Shown: positions 28,846 through 36,139 of the stretch, piece after piece | Layout: every line of letters begins with the position of its first letter | Numbering within the stretch: position 1 is the first letter of the stretch | NCBI RefSeq assembly: GCF_003334405.1 | Contig: NZ_QOWM01000003.1 | Reading direction: 5' to 3' (one strand) | DNA length: 64,000 bases | Source: Escherichia coli | Lineage (GTDB): Bacteria; Pseudomonadota; Gammaproteobacteria; Enterobacterales; Enterobacteriaceae | Position numbers and translations under genes: made by a program | Notes under the pieces: generated by a model | Seen by the model: only the letters and a program-made list of their open reading frames with translations | Told to the model about the DNA's origin: nothing | The model's database searches: none

Positions 28846-29088
28846 ATGAAGAAACCGCTCCGCCAGCAAAACCGCCAGATTATTAGCTATGTCCCACGCA
28901 CGGAACCCGCGCCGCCAGAACATGCGATAAAGATGGATTCGTTTCGTGATGTCTGGATGCTGCGTGGCAAATATGTTGCGTTTGTACTGATGGGAGAGTC
29001 ATTACTGCGCTCACCGGCGTTTACTGTGCCTGAATCTGCCCAACGTTGGGCAAATCAGATCCGCCAGGAAGGGGAAGTGACTGAGTAA
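28846..29088 (+). CDS. cedA: cell division modulator CedA
   Basis: 80 aa from ATG 28846 (MKKPLRQQNRQ); the 87 aa ORF-track version from ATG 28825 is an alternative start. Confidence 0.8.
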   Translation: MKKPLRQQNRQIISYVPRTEPAPPEHAIKMDSFRDVWMLRGKYVAFVLMGESLLRSPAFTVPESAQRWANQIRQEGEVTE

Positions 29089-29376
29089 GGATTACATACC
29101 TCCCGGTTTTGCCGGGAGTTACATGACCTGAAATTCTGTATTTCGTTGCTACATTCATTCAAACCACCTGTAACAAAAAGCTGCCTTTGACGATCTATTG
29201 CTATAAATAAGTGATCTTTTTTCTTTAATTGTTTATTTATTTTAAAATGGTTAAGTTTTGCTAATCATGATGAGCTATTTTTGATAGTTCATCCTGTGGC
29301 GTCGCTCTTAAACTTATATTGTAAATGACTTAGATTTAAATGAGATAATAATTTTGTTAACAATATGAGGCGGGAG

Positions 29377-30180
29377 ATGTTTTCTACAAACTTAATACAG
29401 AGTAATTATGGTGATTTAAATATTAAAAGCCTGGCTTTCGACTCTTTTAAAGAAAGGCTGCAGTCTACTATGACAGCACTCACTTTCTTTATATCAACGG
29501 GTCAATGTGACTGCGATGAAATAGCAGAATCAAACTTTAATTATATGATTGCCTATATGTCTAACATTAACTATGATGCCTCAAAGCCAGGAGCGCCAGC
29601 ACTTAGTTTTGATACATATCTGCAGGACAATGTTAAATATAGAGTAATAATTAATAATCTTTATGGTAGTGAAATTCGGATAAGAGGTATAAATAAAGAT
29701 TTTATTGGAATGGATGTCACTTCTGTATTTCGCCCAGAAAAAATGACCAATTTGATCAGTATAAAAAACAGGTTGGTTATTCACTATTTAAGGACTATAT
29801 ACTATGAACAAAATTATATACATCCTGTCGGGAGCATTTTTGCTGCGATTCAAAAAAATGAGAGTCTCCTAAAGTTTCCTTCGATAATATCAATGCTTAA
29901 TATCAATCTTCTTTTTAATCCACTAAATCTTCCGGGAATGGGAAGTGGTGTGCTTGAAGATATTATGAGTATTCCAGATAGTTCACTTAGAAAACGTCTC
30001 GGGTATGAGGTTTTAAGCTTCTCGCTACAGGCACATTCATTGAGCCAGGAATGTATTGATAAGTTGGACATTTTTTTCGCTGACGATCTGTTTAAATATG
30101 AGTCAGTATGCATCGCCGCGATGGAACATTTAAAAAGTAAGGCAACGGCCCCTATACAAAACGGACCGTTGCCAGCATAA
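29377..30180 (+). CDS. ydjO: uncharacterised protein, AT-rich gene
   Basis: 267 aa from ATG 29377 (GAGG-type RBS upstream); visibly AT-rich coding and upstream region; recognised as YdjO. Confidence 0.75.
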   Translation: MFSTNLIQSNYGDLNIKSLAFDSFKERLQSTMTALTFFISTGQCDCDEIAESNFNYMIAYMSNINYDASKPGAPALSFDTYLQDNVKYRVIINNLYGSEIRIRGINKDFIGMDVTSVFRPEKMTNLISIKNRLVIHYLRTIYYEQNYIHPVGSIFAAIQKNESLLKFPSIISMLNINLLFNPLNLPGMGSGVLEDIMSIPDSSLRKRLGYEVLSFSLQAHSLSQECIDKLDIFFADDLFKYESVCIAAMEHLKSKATAPIQNGPLPA

Positions 30181-30183
30181 GAA

Positions 30184-31575
30184 TTAATGGTGTGCCAGTT
30201 CGGCGTCGTCTTCGCTATCCAGAATGGCTTTATCGGTTTGCTTCAGCCACTGGCTGGTCAGCGTGCCAGCTGTCATCGAGCCACTAACGTTTAACGCCGT
30301 ACGGCCCATGTCGATAAGCGGTTCAACGGAGATTAACAGCGCCACCAGGGTTACTGGCAGGCCCATCGCAGGCAGTACAATCAGTGCGGCGAAAGTTGCA
30401 CCACCACCGACACCGGCAACGCCTGCGGAACTAACGGTAACAATACCGACCAGCGTCGCAATCCACATCGGGTCCAGCGGGTTAATGCCAACCGTAGGCG
30501 CAACCATCACCGCCAGCATTGCCGGATACAAACCGGCGCAGCCGTTCTGACCAATGGTTGCACCGAAAGAGGCGGCGAAACTGGCGATGGATTCAGGAAC
30601 GCCCAGACGACGCGTTTGTGCTTCCACATTCAGTGGGATAGACGCAGCACTGGAACGGCTGGTAAAGGCAAACGTCAGCACAGGCCATACCTTACGGAAG
30701 TACTTCAGCGGACTCACGCCATTAATGCCCAGCAGAATGCCATGCACTGCAAACATAATCAGCAGACCGAGGTAGGACGCGACAACGAAACTTCCCAGTT
30801 TGATGATGTCTTGCAAGTTAGAACCTGCAACCACTTTGGTCATTAGAGCCAGAACGCCGTAAGGGGTCAACTGCATGACCAGGCGAACCAGTTTCATCAC
30901 CCAGCTTTGTAGGGTATCGATAGCGGCTAAGACGCGTTCACCTTTCGGCGCATCATCCTTCAGCAGTTTCAATGCAGCTACGCCGAGGAATGCGGCAAAA
31001 ATTACCACGCTGATAATTGACGTCGGATTGGCTCCGGTAAGATCGGCAAACGGGTTTTTCGGGATAAAGGACAAGACCAGCTGCGGAACGCTCAGATCAG
31101 AGACTTTACCAACATAGTTACTTTCAATGGCGTTCAGACGTGCAGTTTCTGCACCACCCTGAACCAGACCTTCAGCCGTCAAACCAAACAGGTTGGTGAC
31201 CAGCACACCGACCAGCGCCGCAATCAGCGTGGTAAACAAAAGCGTACCGATGGTCAGAAAACTGATTTTGCCTAACTGAGATGCGTTATGCAGACGGGCA
31301 ACCGCGCTCAGAATAGAGGCGAAGACTAACGGCATAACGATCATTTGCAGCAGTTGAACATAGCCGTTACCAACGATGTTAAACCACTGTACAGAATCTT
31401 TAAGTACCTGGCTGTCAGAACCATAAATGGTATGCAGGGCAAGGCCAAAAACCACACCCATCACCAGACCCACCAGCACTTTTTTCGCCAGACTCCACTG
31501 TTTATGGCGGGTCTGAGCCAGCGCAAACAGCAGTACAACGAACACCACGATGTTCGCAATTAATGGAAAGTTCAT
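30184..31575 (-). CDS. tcyP: L-cystine transporter (dicarboxylate/amino acid:cation symporter family)
   Basis: 463 aa polytopic membrane protein (formerly ydjN). Confidence 0.9.
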
Positions 31576-31707
31576 CCCCGTTCTCCTGATCTTATTATTT
31601 CTATCACTGCGTAGCAGTCATAGTGTTGGCGCAAGATTAACAGAACTGTGAGCTGGCTCTTATATTCAAATGGAATTGCTTATTCCAGAAAGGTGATTTT
31701 TGCCTTT

Positions 31708-32298
31708 TTAGTATTCAACCTGATGCTTAATAAGCCGATGAAACTGGATCTGCAAGGTATTGATCATTTGCGATGACCAACGAACAGCGCTGTTCTCGGG
31801 TAATGAATGGGGCATCCATACCGACCAGACAAATAATGCCATGCAGATAAAACGTTCCAGTTGGTTGCCCTTTTGGGGAACCAGGATAGGCAAGCGGAAA
31901 CGCCAGCGGCATGGCCAGAGCAGGGGAACACCGGCGGGTGTCAGCATATCGGCAAGTATGTGGCTCAAATAACCCAGCACCATTCCTTGTAGCGCATCAG
32001 CCGGAATGAACCAGCCTTCCGGAACCTTAAGGTAAAAGGTTGCCAGCAGCGCAAATACCGCCAGCAGACTGTGGGTAAAACCACGATGCCCAAAAGCGCG
32101 GGCGATCGGTTTTGATATCCATTTTAATCGCTGCCCAAGAAACGACTTTGGGTGATCGATGTCCGGTAACAAACACGTTAGGATTGCGGAAGGGACAATA
32201 TGCCACCAGTCACCCTGTGCCAGCACGGGCGTCAGCTCGGCATTTTTGGCAAATACCGCACAAGCAATAGAAAAGAGAAGGTGACCTTCCGCCGTCAT
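31708..32298 (-). CDS. ydjM: LexA-regulated inner membrane protein (YdjM family)
   Basis: 196 aa from ATG complement 32296..32298; LexA box 17 nt upstream. Confidence 0.85.
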   Translation of the reverse strand: MTAEGHLLFSIACAVFAKNAELTPVLAQGDWWHIVPSAILTCLLPDIDHPKSFLGQRLKWISKPIARAFGHRGFTHSLLAVFALLATFYLKVPEGWFIPADALQGMVLGYLSHILADMLTPAGVPLLWPCRWRFRLPILVPQKGNQLERFICMALFVWSVWMPHSLPENSAVRWSSQMINTLQIQFHRLIKHQVEY

Positions 32299-32314
32299 GA
32301 TAAAACTCACTAAA

Positions 32315-32330
32315 CTGTCGATACGTACAG
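32315..32330. promoter_or_regulatory. LexA (SOS) box upstream of ydjM
   Basis: CTGTCGATACGTACAG = CTG-N10-CAG, flanked by TA; an adjacent degenerate second box-like element (TATACAGTA) lies at about 32327..32350. Confidence 0.7.
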
Positions 32331-32460
32331 TATAGGATTTTTATACAGTACACGGAAGTGGTGACGGTGTAACTCTTTCTCTTAAATTGACGATTAATCC
32401 GTCAGTTGAATGCAATTTCAGATAAAGAACCAGGGGCAGCGAGATCACTGCCCCTGGTCA

Positions 32461-33129
32461 TTAACCGAGAAGGTCTTTTGCGGTGAGTTCTGTCAGCGAT
32501 GAGAGTTTGACGTCTGCTAATACAAAACGTGGATCATTTTGCGCTTCTGGCGCAGGAACGACGATGGAACGCATGCGGGCTGCTTTAGAGGCGATCATGC
32601 CATTTACCGAATCTTCCAGCGCTACGCAGGTCAGAGGGTCAACGCCCAGTTTTGCTGCGCAGTCGAGATATACTTGCGGATGCGGCTTGCTGTAAGGCAG
32701 TTTTTCGGCCGAGGCGAGGGCATCGAAACTGTCGCGTAAGTCAAACATGGTCAACACTTTTTCCAGCATATGTAGTGGTGACGCGGAGGCCAGTCCCACC
32801 AATAAACCTTGTTCTTTGCATAACGCAACGGCTTCGCGCACGCCTGGTAATAATGGACGTGTCTCTTCAACCAGTGAAATGGCACGGGCAATAACCCGTT
32901 CTACTACTTCCTGACGGCTTGGCCCATTCCACGGTTGCCGGGCGTACCAAAGATCGACCACCATATCGATGCGTAAACCTAAGGTGTCCGGCAGCTCGTT
33001 ACGACGGGAGATATCCACCCCCAGGCTTGCCATCACATCCAGTTCGGCTCGATCCCATAAAGGTTCTGAGTCGATAAGTAATCCATCCATATCAAAAATT
33101 GCAGCAAGAATCTGACGCGGGGTTGACAT
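32461..33129 (-). CDS. hxpB: HAD-family sugar/hexitol phosphatase
   Basis: 222 aa; HAD motif I DMDGLLIDSE (formerly yniC). Confidence 0.9.
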   Translation of the reverse strand: MSTPRQILAAIFDMDGLLIDSEPLWDRAELDVMASLGVDISRRNELPDTLGLRIDMVVDLWYARQPWNGPSRQEVVERVIARAISLVEETRPLLPGVREAVALCKEQGLLVGLASASPLHMLEKVLTMFDLRDSFDALASAEKLPYSKPHPQVYLDCAAKLGVDPLTCVALEDSVNGMIASKAARMRSIVVPAPEAQNDPRFVLADVKLSSLTELTAKDLLG

Positions 33130-33275
33130 TACAACCTCTCCTTTAGAGCATTATGTGTAAGGTATTAAGCCGTGCTTATGATTAAGCGCCTATCATATCG
33201 CCTTTAAAGAATGGGCGAAAACAGATATCTACAGGTAAACTAAGTGAAACGACGCGTCTTAATCAAGGAGAACTC

Positions 33276-33812
33276 ATGACGTATCAACAAGCTGGACGCA
33301 TTGCTGTTTTGAAAAGGATTTTGGGTTGGGTGATTTTTATACCTGCATTGATCTCTACATTGATTTCTTTGCTGAAATTTATGAATACCCGGCAGGAAAA
33401 CAAGGAAGGCATTAATGCGGTCATGCTCGACTTTACTCATGTCATGATCGATATGATGCAGGCGAATACGCCTTTTTTGAATTTATTCTGGTATAACTCC
33501 CCGACGCCCAATTTTAATGGTGGCGTGAACGTTATGTTCTGGGTGATTTTCATCCTGATTTTTGTCGGACTGGCGTTGCAGGATTCCGGTGCCCGGATGA
33601 GTCGCCAGGCGCGCTTCTTGCGGGAAGGTGTTGAAGATCAACTCATTCTGGAAAAAGCCAAAGGGGAAGAGGGGCTAACGCGTGAACAAATTGAGTCCCG
33701 TATTGTTGTTCCGCACCATACTATTTTCCTGCAGTTTTTCTCACTGTATATCCTGCCGGTTATTTGTATTGCTGCAGGTTATGTGTTCTTTTCTCTGCTT
33801 GGGTTTATTTAA
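33276..33812 (+). CDS. yniB: inner membrane protein of unknown function
   Basis: 178 aa with several hydrophobic helices. Confidence 0.8.
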   Translation: MTYQQAGRIAVLKRILGWVIFIPALISTLISLLKFMNTRQENKEGINAVMLDFTHVMIDMMQANTPFLNLFWYNSPTPNFNGGVNVMFWVIFILIFVGLALQDSGARMSRQARFLREGVEDQLILEKAKGEEGLTREQIESRIVVPHHTIFLQFFSLYILPVICIAAGYVFFSLLGFI

Positions 33813-33852
33813 TCAAAAGGCCGCACGGAGCGGCCATTATCCTCAACCCATA

Positions 33853-34713
33853 TCATGCTGCTAATAATCTATCCAATGACTGCTGAGCAATAACCAAATG
33901 CTGACCGCCAAATAACCTTGCACGATTTAACAGCGTGTAGAGTTGGTAAACCGGTTGACGTTCAAGGAAATCGGCAGGTAGCGGGGATACTGACTGATAG
34001 CCGTCATAGATTTGTGGCGGCTGTTCAGTATGCAGCGGTAACATCGCCAGGTCGCACTCTCGGTCACCCCAGTAGCAGGCCGGGTCGAAAATGTACGGGC
34101 CATCCGGACCCAGTGCACAGTTGCCGGACCATAAATCGCCGTGCAACAGAGAAGGCTGCGGTTGATGTGAGGCCAGACGCTGCTGAATATGCTCGACGAT
34201 GGCGTCGATATTGCCGAAAGCGATCCCTTTTTCTGCAGCCAGTTCCAACTGCCAGCCAATCCGTTGTTCAGCAAAAAACGTTGACCAGCGACGTTGCCAG
34301 GTGTTGGGCTGTGGAGTTGTGGAGAGCGCGTTATCGAAATCAAGGCCAAATTGTGGTTGGTCGCTCCATTGATGTAAACGCGCAATTTGCTGACCAAGAA
34401 TAAATGCGCTATGCGCATCCAGCGGACGAGGTGGGAGATAATCCATCACCAGAAAACTGTAGTCACGGTCAGCGCCAACTGCCCAAACCTTAGGCACGGT
34501 GACGGTTTTACTACGCGACAGTAACTCCAGTTGGTCGGCTTCGGCGGTAAAACCGGGAAGCAGTTCCCTTTCATCACATTTGACGAAAAAATCATGTCCT
34601 GCATAGCGCAAATGCCATGCGGCATGGACTTCTCCGCCAGGCAGTTCATTACGCAGTTCGATTTCGCCTTCACCTAACTGCTCGCTCAAAAGACGACTGA
34701 TTGCCTGCCACAT
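33853..34713 (-). CDS. yniA: fructosamine/ketosamine kinase family protein
   Basis: 286 aa; kinase-like HGDLWSGN motif. Confidence 0.85.
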   Translation of the reverse strand: MWQAISRLLSEQLGEGEIELRNELPGGEVHAAWHLRYAGHDFFVKCDERELLPGFTAEADQLELLSRSKTVTVPKVWAVGADRDYSFLVMDYLPPRPLDAHSAFILGQQIARLHQWSDQPQFGLDFDNALSTTPQPNTWQRRWSTFFAEQRIGWQLELAAEKGIAFGNIDAIVEHIQQRLASHQPQPSLLHGDLWSGNCALGPDGPYIFDPACYWGDRECDLAMLPLHTEQPPQIYDGYQSVSPLPADFLERQPVYQLYTLLNRARLFGGQHLVIAQQSLDRLLAA

Positions 34714-34818
34714 GATGTCTCTCCCATGTTGTCTGCCAGATCATAAGGTTAGCGCAAGAATGCGGTGTAAAAACACGAGCTAACGCACACCACAGACTGA
34801 TTATTGCCCAAAAACCAT

Positions 34819-35109
34819 TTATTTTCTGTTGCTATTCCATTCCTCCCAGGTCGTGATGGTGATTTCAGGATCTTTGCCGGTTGCACTTTGGGTAAGCCCC
34901 GAAACCAGTTCTCTAATTTCTTCTTCACTTTGGGTACTGATAAGTCCAAAAGTGTTAGTTCCCAGCTCATGGATATTTCCCTCATCATCCGTCATAGTGA
35001 GCAAAAAACCGTCGCGAGTCAGGTAATTATTCAACTCGTTAATTTCAGTCAATGTATCCTCATGCAACATGACGGTTATGACATAACGGACAAGATCGCC
35101 ACTGGCCAT
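34819..35109 (-). CDS. ydiZ: uncharacterised protein, 96 aa
   Basis: ORF 96 aa recognised as YdiZ. Confidence 0.75.
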   Translation of the reverse strand: MASGDLVRYVITVMLHEDTLTEINELNNYLTRDGFLLTMTDDEGNIHELGTNTFGLISTQSEEEIRELVSGLTQSATGKDPEITITTWEEWNSNRK

Positions 35110-35209
35110 AGTTCACCCCTTTGTTATCACATGACTTTTGAGCATAGTCGGAGAAACGCGTTGCCGACAGGTTGGTGATGATTCCCCCAATGCTGGGGGA
35201 ATGTTTTTG

Positions 35210-36139
35210 TTAGCGGGAAAGGTAAGCGTAAATTTTTTGCGTATCGTCATGGGAGCACAGACGTGTTCCCTGATTGAGTGTGGCTGCACTCCCCGCAGCT
35301 ACGCCAAAACGAACCATCTCTTCAAGAGAGGCATTTTCTGCCAGTTTCAGTGTCATCGCGCCGACCATGCTGTCACCAGCGCCAACGGTACTCTGGCTTT
35401 TCACCGGTGGTGGCACCACCTGAATACAGTTTTCACTATCAACACCCAGCGCTCCTTGTGGACCCAGGGAAACGACAACCCGTTTGGCCTTGCCGCTATT
35501 AACGATTTCCTGCGCGGCTTTGCGGACATCGTCCGGCTGGGTGAGTTCGCGATTCACCAGCGCACTGAGTTCTTTTTGGTTAGGCTTAACCAACTCGATG
35601 TTACCAATTGCCAGTGCTGCACTTAACGCTTCGCCAGAACTGTCGACGATGCAGCGGATCCCTTGTTTTTGCGCAGCGGAAATCAGTTGGGTTAATTTTT
35701 CCAGCTTCACACCTGGCGGCAGGCTTCCGCTTATGACCAGGATGGCCCCGGATTCAATTTCCAGAACTTGCTCTTCAAGCTGGCGAAACTCATCTTCATT
35801 TAATGCCGCGCCTGGCATAACAAAACGATACTGCTCACCGCTTGCTTCCACATGTACGTGTAAATTCTGCCGGGTCCAGTCTTTGGCTTCTACAGTAGCG
35901 ACGGGGACATTTTCATCCGCCAACAGTGAAACCAGGTGTTCGCCGGTCGCGCCACCCGCCGGGAAGATCGCTGTGGCACTGCCTCCAAGATGGGCAATGG
36001 CGCGGGCGACGTTGATGCCGCCGCCCCCGGGTTCGAACACCGGTGCGGTACAGCGCAGTTTTCCTTCGGGATAAATTTGCGGGGTAATTGTTGCGCTATC
36101 GAGAGAGGGCGCAAGTGTCAACGTATAGATACGTACCAT
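35210..36139 (-). CDS. pfkB: 6-phosphofructokinase II (ribokinase family)
   Basis: 309 aa from second ATG (AGGAGGA RBS 4 nt upstream); ribokinase-family motif VGAGDSMVGA. Confidence 0.95.
   Translation of the reverse strand: MVRIYTLTLAPSLDSATITPQIYPEGKLRCTAPVFEPGGGGINVARAIAHLGGSATAIFPAGGATGEHLVSLLADENVPVATVEAKDWTRQNLHVHVEASGEQYRFVMPGAALNEDEFRQLEEQVLEIESGAILVISGSLPPGVKLEKLTQLISAAQKQGIRCIVDSSGEALSAALAIGNIELVKPNQKELSALVNRELTQPDDVRKAAQEIVNSGKAKRVVVSLGPQGALGVDSENCIQVVPPPVKSQSTVGAGDSMVGAMTLKLAENASLEEMVRFGVAAGSAATLNQGTRLCSHDDTQKIYAYLSR

Follow-up and report, generated by a model that had tools for sequence, protein, structure and literature searches.

Adjacent LexA boxes at the ydjM promoter of Escherichia coli: probable tandem operators and their conservation

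Two adjacent elements upstream of ydjM, an established member of the Escherichia coli SOS regulon, are very probably the tandem LexA operators of the ydjM promoter. They lie in a 64,000-nucleotide stretch of E. coli DNA that was analysed as a whole and is referred to here as the window. The tandem operators are already known, having been described in 2000; their identity rests on the sequence of the two sites, their rank among matrix matches, and the conservation of both the sites and the spacing between them, all computed in the window and in orthologous sequences. The result is mainly confirmatory: ydjM is already listed in textbooks as an SOS gene, and no new question is opened. The comparative addition is an 18-bp offset with a degenerate half at the junction, which is stable across two families and mirrors the arrangement at recN. 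The comparison also suggests that the weak half-site is held in its form by an overlapping -10 hexamer. Residual novelty is confined to this possible overlap and to a conserved upstream core, GTTACAnCGTCAC. A possible use of the system is in modelling graded occupancy of SOS promoters.

Sequence, strength and SOS control of the two boxes

The window comes from the E. coli chromosome, and the gene order at the locus is tcyP-ydjM-hxpB-yniB. The interval 31600-32560 is matched by 5424 of 5426 complete E. coli genomes, in which ydjM and hxpB (yniC) are annotated. The regulated gene, ydjM (31708..32298, minus strand), encodes a 196-aa membrane metal-dependent hydrolase of family PF04307; its annotated ATG is at 32298 on the minus strand, and a longer, GTG-initiated open reading frame is a mechanical extension. 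On the ydjM strand, the region before the gene reads ...CCGTG TACTGTATAAAAATCCTATA CTGTACGTATCGACAG TTTAGTGAGTTTTATC ATG. Box 1, the primary operator (32313..32332, minus strand), is the 20-mer TACTGTACGTATCGACAGTT with a 16-mer core at 32315-32330, and box 2, the secondary operator (32331..32350, minus strand), is the 20-mer TACTGTATAAAAATCCTATA with its core at 32333-32348. Between the cores lie 2 bp, and the box centres are offset by 18 bp, the two 20-mers overlapping in a shared TA; relative to the ATG in K-12, the boxes start at -34 (box 1) and -52 (box 2). The preliminary description had given CTGTCGATACGTACAG at 32315-32330 and TATACAGTA at 32342-32350 on the plus strand, and both sequences are found there; its distance of 17 nt to the ydjM start is in line with the 16 nt between the box 1 core and the ATG.

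The two boxes depart from the LexA consensus in different ways. Box 1 has CTG and CAG at exactly the spacing of the SOS-box criterion, CTG-N10-CAG, and to this extent deserves the word 'perfect' used for it in the preliminary description. The word does not extend to the whole operator: the spacer, TCGATACGTA, has G/C at four of its ten bases where the consensus is (TA)5, the matrix score lies at the weak end of the known range, and the published heterology index (HI) of the E. coli box is 9.0 (PMC11228462). Box 1 is a moderately weak operator. The distal half-site of box 2, TACTGTAT, matches the consensus half-site at 8 of 8 positions, and the half adjoining box 1 is degenerate, with CTA in place of CAG. 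Box 2 is hence not a full palindrome (CTG...CTA), and the CTG-N10-CAG pattern is present on one half only.

Counting the bare CTG-N10-CAG pattern says little about LexA. It occurs 24 times in the window, mostly inside genes, compared with 12.8 +/- 3.9 times in dinucleotide shuffles, 1 of 100 of which reached the count of 24. The excess probably stems from the common codons CTG (Leu) and CAG (Gln) rather than from LexA sites. Because the pattern is so common and uninformative, a symmetrised LexA weight matrix was built from 18 independent E. coli operators (PMC3009722), with ydjM excluded. Scoring with such a matrix, proposed in the preliminary description, ranks box 2 (32331-32350; about 15.8 bits) second and box 1 (32313-32332; 15.0 bits) third in the 64-kb window, the next match after the boxes having 11.4 bits. 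The adjacent element, which had been thought to resemble a second pair of half-sites, is thus a LexA-like site abutting box 1. The training operators span 13.4-28.2 bits, so that both ydjM boxes fall inside this range, at its weak end. By heterology index box 2 is borderline, its published value of about 12.9 (for the Salmonella equivalent) being near the usual cut-off, and the additive matrix probably overrates it, since one of its half-sites lacks CAG.

Could both matches be a chance trinucleotide pattern with no regulatory role? The abundance of CTG-N10-CAG in the window speaks for this, as does the exact score distribution, by which a score of at least 15 bits has a probability of 2.4e-6 per position and chance alone would place 0.2-0.3 sites of about 15 bits in 64 kb. 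For another site this strong to lie within +/-40 nt of a first, however, the chance probability is only 3e-4 to 1e-3, and the two top matches from outside the training set are adjacent to each other and directly upstream of a LexA-dependent gene (PMC11228462). Both boxes are, moreover, conserved in more than 80 species. The conservation and the expression data effectively refute chance as the explanation, leaving it a negligible probability.

Other matches in the window differ in kind. The top match, CACTGGATAGATAACCAGCA (19008-19027, minus strand; 20.8 bits), lies just upstream of a GTG start and is the operator of cho (ydjQ), a member of the training set. A near-copy of part of box 2, AGCTGTATAAAAATCCTGAG at 24892-24911 (10.9 bits), has 15 consecutive bases (CTGTATAAAAATCCT) in common with it. 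The near-copy is inside a 450-aa open reading frame, presumably chbF from the K-12 gene order, where it encodes ...ELYKNPEL..., and because of this position inside coding sequence it was set aside as a LexA site and treated as most likely a coincidence. Two weak LexA-like matches fall in intergenic DNA, at 16630-16649 and 55168-55187 (11.4 and 11.2 bits); about 2.5 matches of about 11-bit strength are expected by chance per 64 kb.

The LexA dependence of ydjM, its induction by DNA damage and the tandem binding in vitro are taken from the literature. A passage of PMC4951493 cites Fernandez de Henestrosa 2000 for experimentally reported tandem LexA sites at E. coli ydjM, and CACTGTATAAAAATCCTATA at -52 of b1728, which is box 2 in its K-12 form (CACTG...), is listed as a LexA site (PMC4576408). 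In Salmonella, the ATG of ydjM is preceded, at distances of 14 and 32 nt, by two SOS boxes with HI values of 9.12 and 12.85 (PMC8072944, Table 1). The comparison with reported tandem sites that had been suggested therefore leads back to the E. coli ydjM pair itself and to the same geometry in Salmonella, and the reading as tandem operators agrees with both sources (PMC4951493, PMC8072944) as well as with the 18-bp pair found in most orthologues. SOS control of the gene is likewise documented: AZT induces ydjM 2.5-fold and the lexA dependence is 8.6-fold (PMC11228462), while another study gives induction of as much as log2 2.6 (PMC11002266). Salmonella ydjM is induced 2.11-fold with nalidixic acid, its gfp fusion being too weak to detect (PMC8072944). 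It is plausible that two boxes make repression 'tight', as had been proposed; induction is modest, at 2.1-2.5-fold in two studies. A YdjM-family gene is LexA-regulated in Staphylococcus aureus too (PMC11442139).

Conservation across relatives and the allele of the window

A genome scan with YdjM yielded 80 Enterobacteriaceae loci, from genera including Escherichia, Citrobacter, Salmonella, Enterobacter, Kosakonia, Raoultella, Leclercia, Atlantibacter and Cedecea, which together with the window make 81 sequences. In 78 of the 81, each box reaches 8 bits or more and the two starts are offset by exactly 18 bp; the tandem arrangement is also present in Klebsiella and Shimwellia. The CTG and CAG of box 1 are invariant (81/81), variation being confined to positions 6, 8-11, 13-14 and 19-20. 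In box 2, ACTGTA is found in 78-79 of the 81 sequences, the AAA of positions 9-11 never varies, and all 81 have CCTATA. The exceptions are Citrobacter amalonaticus (L012) and Intestinirhabdus (L026), which are without the distal half-site of box 2, and a Leclercia locus (L060), in which a 1-nt insertion moves the half-site to an offset of 19 bp. Among the Erwiniaceae sampled, both boxes are kept in Erwinia amylovora, Paramixta and Pantoea BAV3049; in E. tracheiphila a [TC]ACTGTA half-site lies 18 bp upstream of box 1 and box 2 as a whole scores below 6 bits, and in one Pantoea the half-site offset is 17 bp. Box 2 is absent from Apirhabdus, where a single near-consensus box, 33 nt before ydjM, scores 24.1 bits.

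How far this conservation reflects LexA is a separate issue, because the whole block of 75 nt, from about 32384 to 32313, is conserved. Across the 81 orthologues, per-position entropy has no significant correlation with LexA information content (rho -0.37 for box 1 and -0.05 for box 2), a null result attributable to the conservation of the entire block. From conservation alone it consequently cannot be concluded that LexA is what constrains box 2. In its strictest form, this objection holds that only box 1 works, and that box 2 is a promoter spacer with a -10-proximal part, or the site of another factor, whose likeness to a LexA site is incidental. The degenerate half of box 2 never drifts towards CAG, reading CTA in all 81 sequences; the upstream block is as conserved as the box; C. 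amalonaticus and Intestinirhabdus have lost the box 2 half-site with the gene intact; and a passage of PMC4576408 credits RegPrecise with only one ydjM site. Against these points, the half that is retained is an exact 8/8 consensus half-site across two families, the tandem binding is cited as experimentally reported (in the passage of PMC4951493 mentioned above), and recN has the same 18-bp geometry of a strong box plus a degenerate one. In Apirhabdus the spacer has been replaced wholesale by an unrelated, GC-rich sequence, so the sequence of box 2 would not be required for promoter function, and it is there that box 1 is near-consensus. Taken together, the retained half-site and the Apirhabdus replacement would favour a constraint by LexA on this box, and a system in which box 1 alone works is improbable.

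Box 1 tends to be stronger in loci in which box 2 is lost or weak: it scores 24.1 bits in Apirhabdus apintestini (L090), 21.1 bits in C. amalonaticus and 21.4 bits in E. tracheiphila (L089). The median for box 1 is 18.2 bits, and the Spearman correlation is -0.20 (p = 0.07, for sequences that are not independent). This weak trend hints that one strong operator may compensate for two weak ones.

A comparison of 29000-35500 with K-12 MG1655 gives five differences, and only one of these, at 32350, is in the intergenic region, which is otherwise identical to that of the K-12 ydjM locus. Position 32350 opens the 20-mer of box 2. On the plus strand it is A in the window and G in both K-12 and the best-matching genome, that is, T versus C on the gene strand; the allele of the window, like a perfect match to 32320-32380, is found in none of 5421 complete E. 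coli genomes. The gene-strand base is C in all five other Escherichia loci, T being frequent in other genera. With T, box 2 scores about 15.7 bits instead of 13.4 and is closer to the LexA consensus. The window also departs from both K-12 and the best match at 32179, inside the ydjM coding sequence.

Promoter geometry and the degenerate half of box 2

The position of the promoter, any cooperativity between LexA dimers and the constraint of a -10 hexamer on box 2 are matters that we infer from the DNA sequence. A strict consensus scan of 32200-32520 found no sigma-70 promoter, and a softer, home-made matrix was used for this reason; its scores are weak and indicative only. With this matrix, the best sigma-70-type combination upstream of ydjM is TTCCGT-17-TATACT (6.5 bits; -10 at 32334-32329), followed by GTTACA-17-TACTGT (4.9 bits) and CTGAAA-17-ATTAAT (2.1 bits). 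In the best combination, the candidate -10 hexamer TATACT (32329..32334, minus strand) spans the junction of the two boxes, the putative weak -35 element is TTCCGT (32352..32357, minus strand), and the predicted start is near 32322. CTTCCG is at least 95% conserved in Enterobacteriaceae, and TATACTG is present in 89 of 89 orthologous promoters examined. The pair TTTATT-17-TATACT occurs in both Apirhabdus and Erwinia, although the spacers between the two hexamers are entirely different. On this evidence, TATACT across the box junction is somewhat favoured as the -10 hexamer. The table of transcription start sites of Kim 2012 has no ydjM entry. CTATACT resembles a sigma-S-type -10; a reading in terms of RpoS was dropped after a literature search on ydjM with RpoS gave no support.

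With a start near 32322, box 1 would occupy -10 to +10 and box 2 -28 to -9. The best promoter models would put the boxes either across -28 to +10 or across the -10 together with the early transcript. Repression can then be pictured as follows. A LexA dimer would bind box 1 with moderate affinity, through correct CTG and CAG triplets flanking a G/C-containing spacer, and a second dimer would bind box 2 immediately upstream, anchored by the consensus half-site TACTGTAT. The two 20-mers would together cover about -28 to +10 and so are predicted to exclude RNA polymerase. RecA-stimulated self-cleavage of LexA is the established SOS mechanism; upon DNA damage, cleavage of LexA would free the promoter and ydjM would be induced. 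With an offset of 18 bp, neighbouring dimers are about 100 degrees apart in helical phase, so a cooperativity like that at lexA is not to be taken for granted.

An alternative arrangement has both boxes binding LexA with the promoter further upstream, either GTTACA-17-TACTGT (start at about 32338) or CTGAAA-17-ATTAAT (start at about 32386). LexA would then act as a roadblock on or downstream of the start instead of covering the spacer between -35 and -10. Genomic SELEX with RpoD holoenzyme does place a constitutive promoter in the yniC-ydjM spacer, for which CTGAAA-17-ATTAAT was proposed, about 65 nt upstream of the candidate -10 hexamer (PMC3946193), and GTTACA-17-[TC]ACTGT is both the second-best model and built on a GTTACA that is near-invariant, Erwinia included. 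The orthologues are less accommodating. In C. amalonaticus and Intestinirhabdus, AGATGG and AGCCTG replace TACTGT, which would abolish the upstream -10, and TATACT is kept; one Pantoea has TACTGG at the same position; and Apirhabdus is without GTTACA yet has TTTATT-17-TATACT. The combination CTGAAA-17-ATTAAT not only scores low but lies in a stretch that is unalignable outside Escherichia. An upstream promoter is therefore unlikely.

The placement of TATACT across the junction offers a rationale for the form of box 2. If TATACT is the -10 hexamer, the inner half of box 2 would be expected to stay CCTATA rather than become CCAGTA. Box 2 may thus be a deliberately half-canonical operator and not a decayed palindrome: with CCTATA fixed by its role in the -10 hexamer, promoter and operator would be physically the same DNA. 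If so, a half-canonical design has been held across Enterobacteriaceae and Erwiniaceae. Together with a second regulator acting at GTTACAnCGTCAC, this proposal is tentative and rather less likely than not.

Comparison with other operators and the conserved upstream block

In tandem LexA promoters such as those of lexA, recN and the colicins, two LexA sites 1-10 bp apart at a conserved spacing are expected, and the 2 bp between the ydjM cores is within this range. The lexA, recN and ydjM operators of K-12 were scored with the same LexA matrix. The geometry has a precedent in recN, with boxes at -68, -46 and -28, and thus offsets of 22 and 18 bp. Its boxes 2 and 3 are like the ydjM pair: they are 18 bp apart, have a shared TA, and have a degenerate half on the side of the junction (TAATGG, in box 3). 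Unlike ydjM, recN possesses an additional strong box, placed 22 bp upstream of this pair, and it is induced 19-fold as against 2.5-fold (PMC11228462). The lexA gene also has two adjacent boxes before one gene, an arrangement conserved across many phyla (PMC4951493). Its boxes, at -47 and -26 (20.7 and 18.2 bits), both have full CTG and CAG triplets and, in contrast with ydjM, are offset by 21 bp, with the dimers on the same helical face. In the colicin double operators (Gillor 2008, as described in a passage of PMC4951493) the sites overlap at terminal positions, whereas the ydjM cores are 2 bp apart. The nalidixic acid-induced ydjM of Salmonella combines the same 18-bp offset with one stronger and one weaker box (PMC8072944); in the two Salmonella loci examined, from subsp. 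diarizonae and arizonae, box 1 has the spacer TACTGTATGAATTGACAGTT and scores 19.5 bits, compared with 15.0 in Escherichia.

Upstream of the boxes, a core GTTACACCGTCAC (32361..32373, minus strand) is near-invariant in Enterobacteriaceae. It reads GTTACAGCGTCAC in four of six Erwiniaceae loci and GTTACAACGTAAC in one more, and is absent from Apirhabdus. The core could serve as another -35 element or be bound by a second regulator; in the latter case, ydjM would integrate the SOS response with another signal. The wider block, 32361-32384, is as conserved as the boxes, reading TTTGTGACAAAGAGTTACACCGTCACC in most Enterobacteriaceae, and the core GTTACAnCGTCAC is also found in Erwiniaceae. In most genera the block is an imperfect palindrome, TGTGAC-N5-GTTACA, and in K-12-like E. 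coli, the window included, the left arm of the palindrome is TAAGAG. Sites of the CRP, UvrY, OmpR and PhoB types were considered for this block by eye, and its spacing fits none of them.

An Rfam scan of the ydjM intergenic region gave no match above threshold. A strong terminator-like hairpin at 32428..32459 (minus strand), with a 14-pair stem that includes 9 GC pairs and is followed by a T-rich tail, lies directly past the stop codon of hxpB (yniC), between hxpB and the ydjM promoter. This hairpin would insulate ydjM from upstream transcription. Most other genera lack it and have another gene at this place, whose end is about 95 nt before ydjM.
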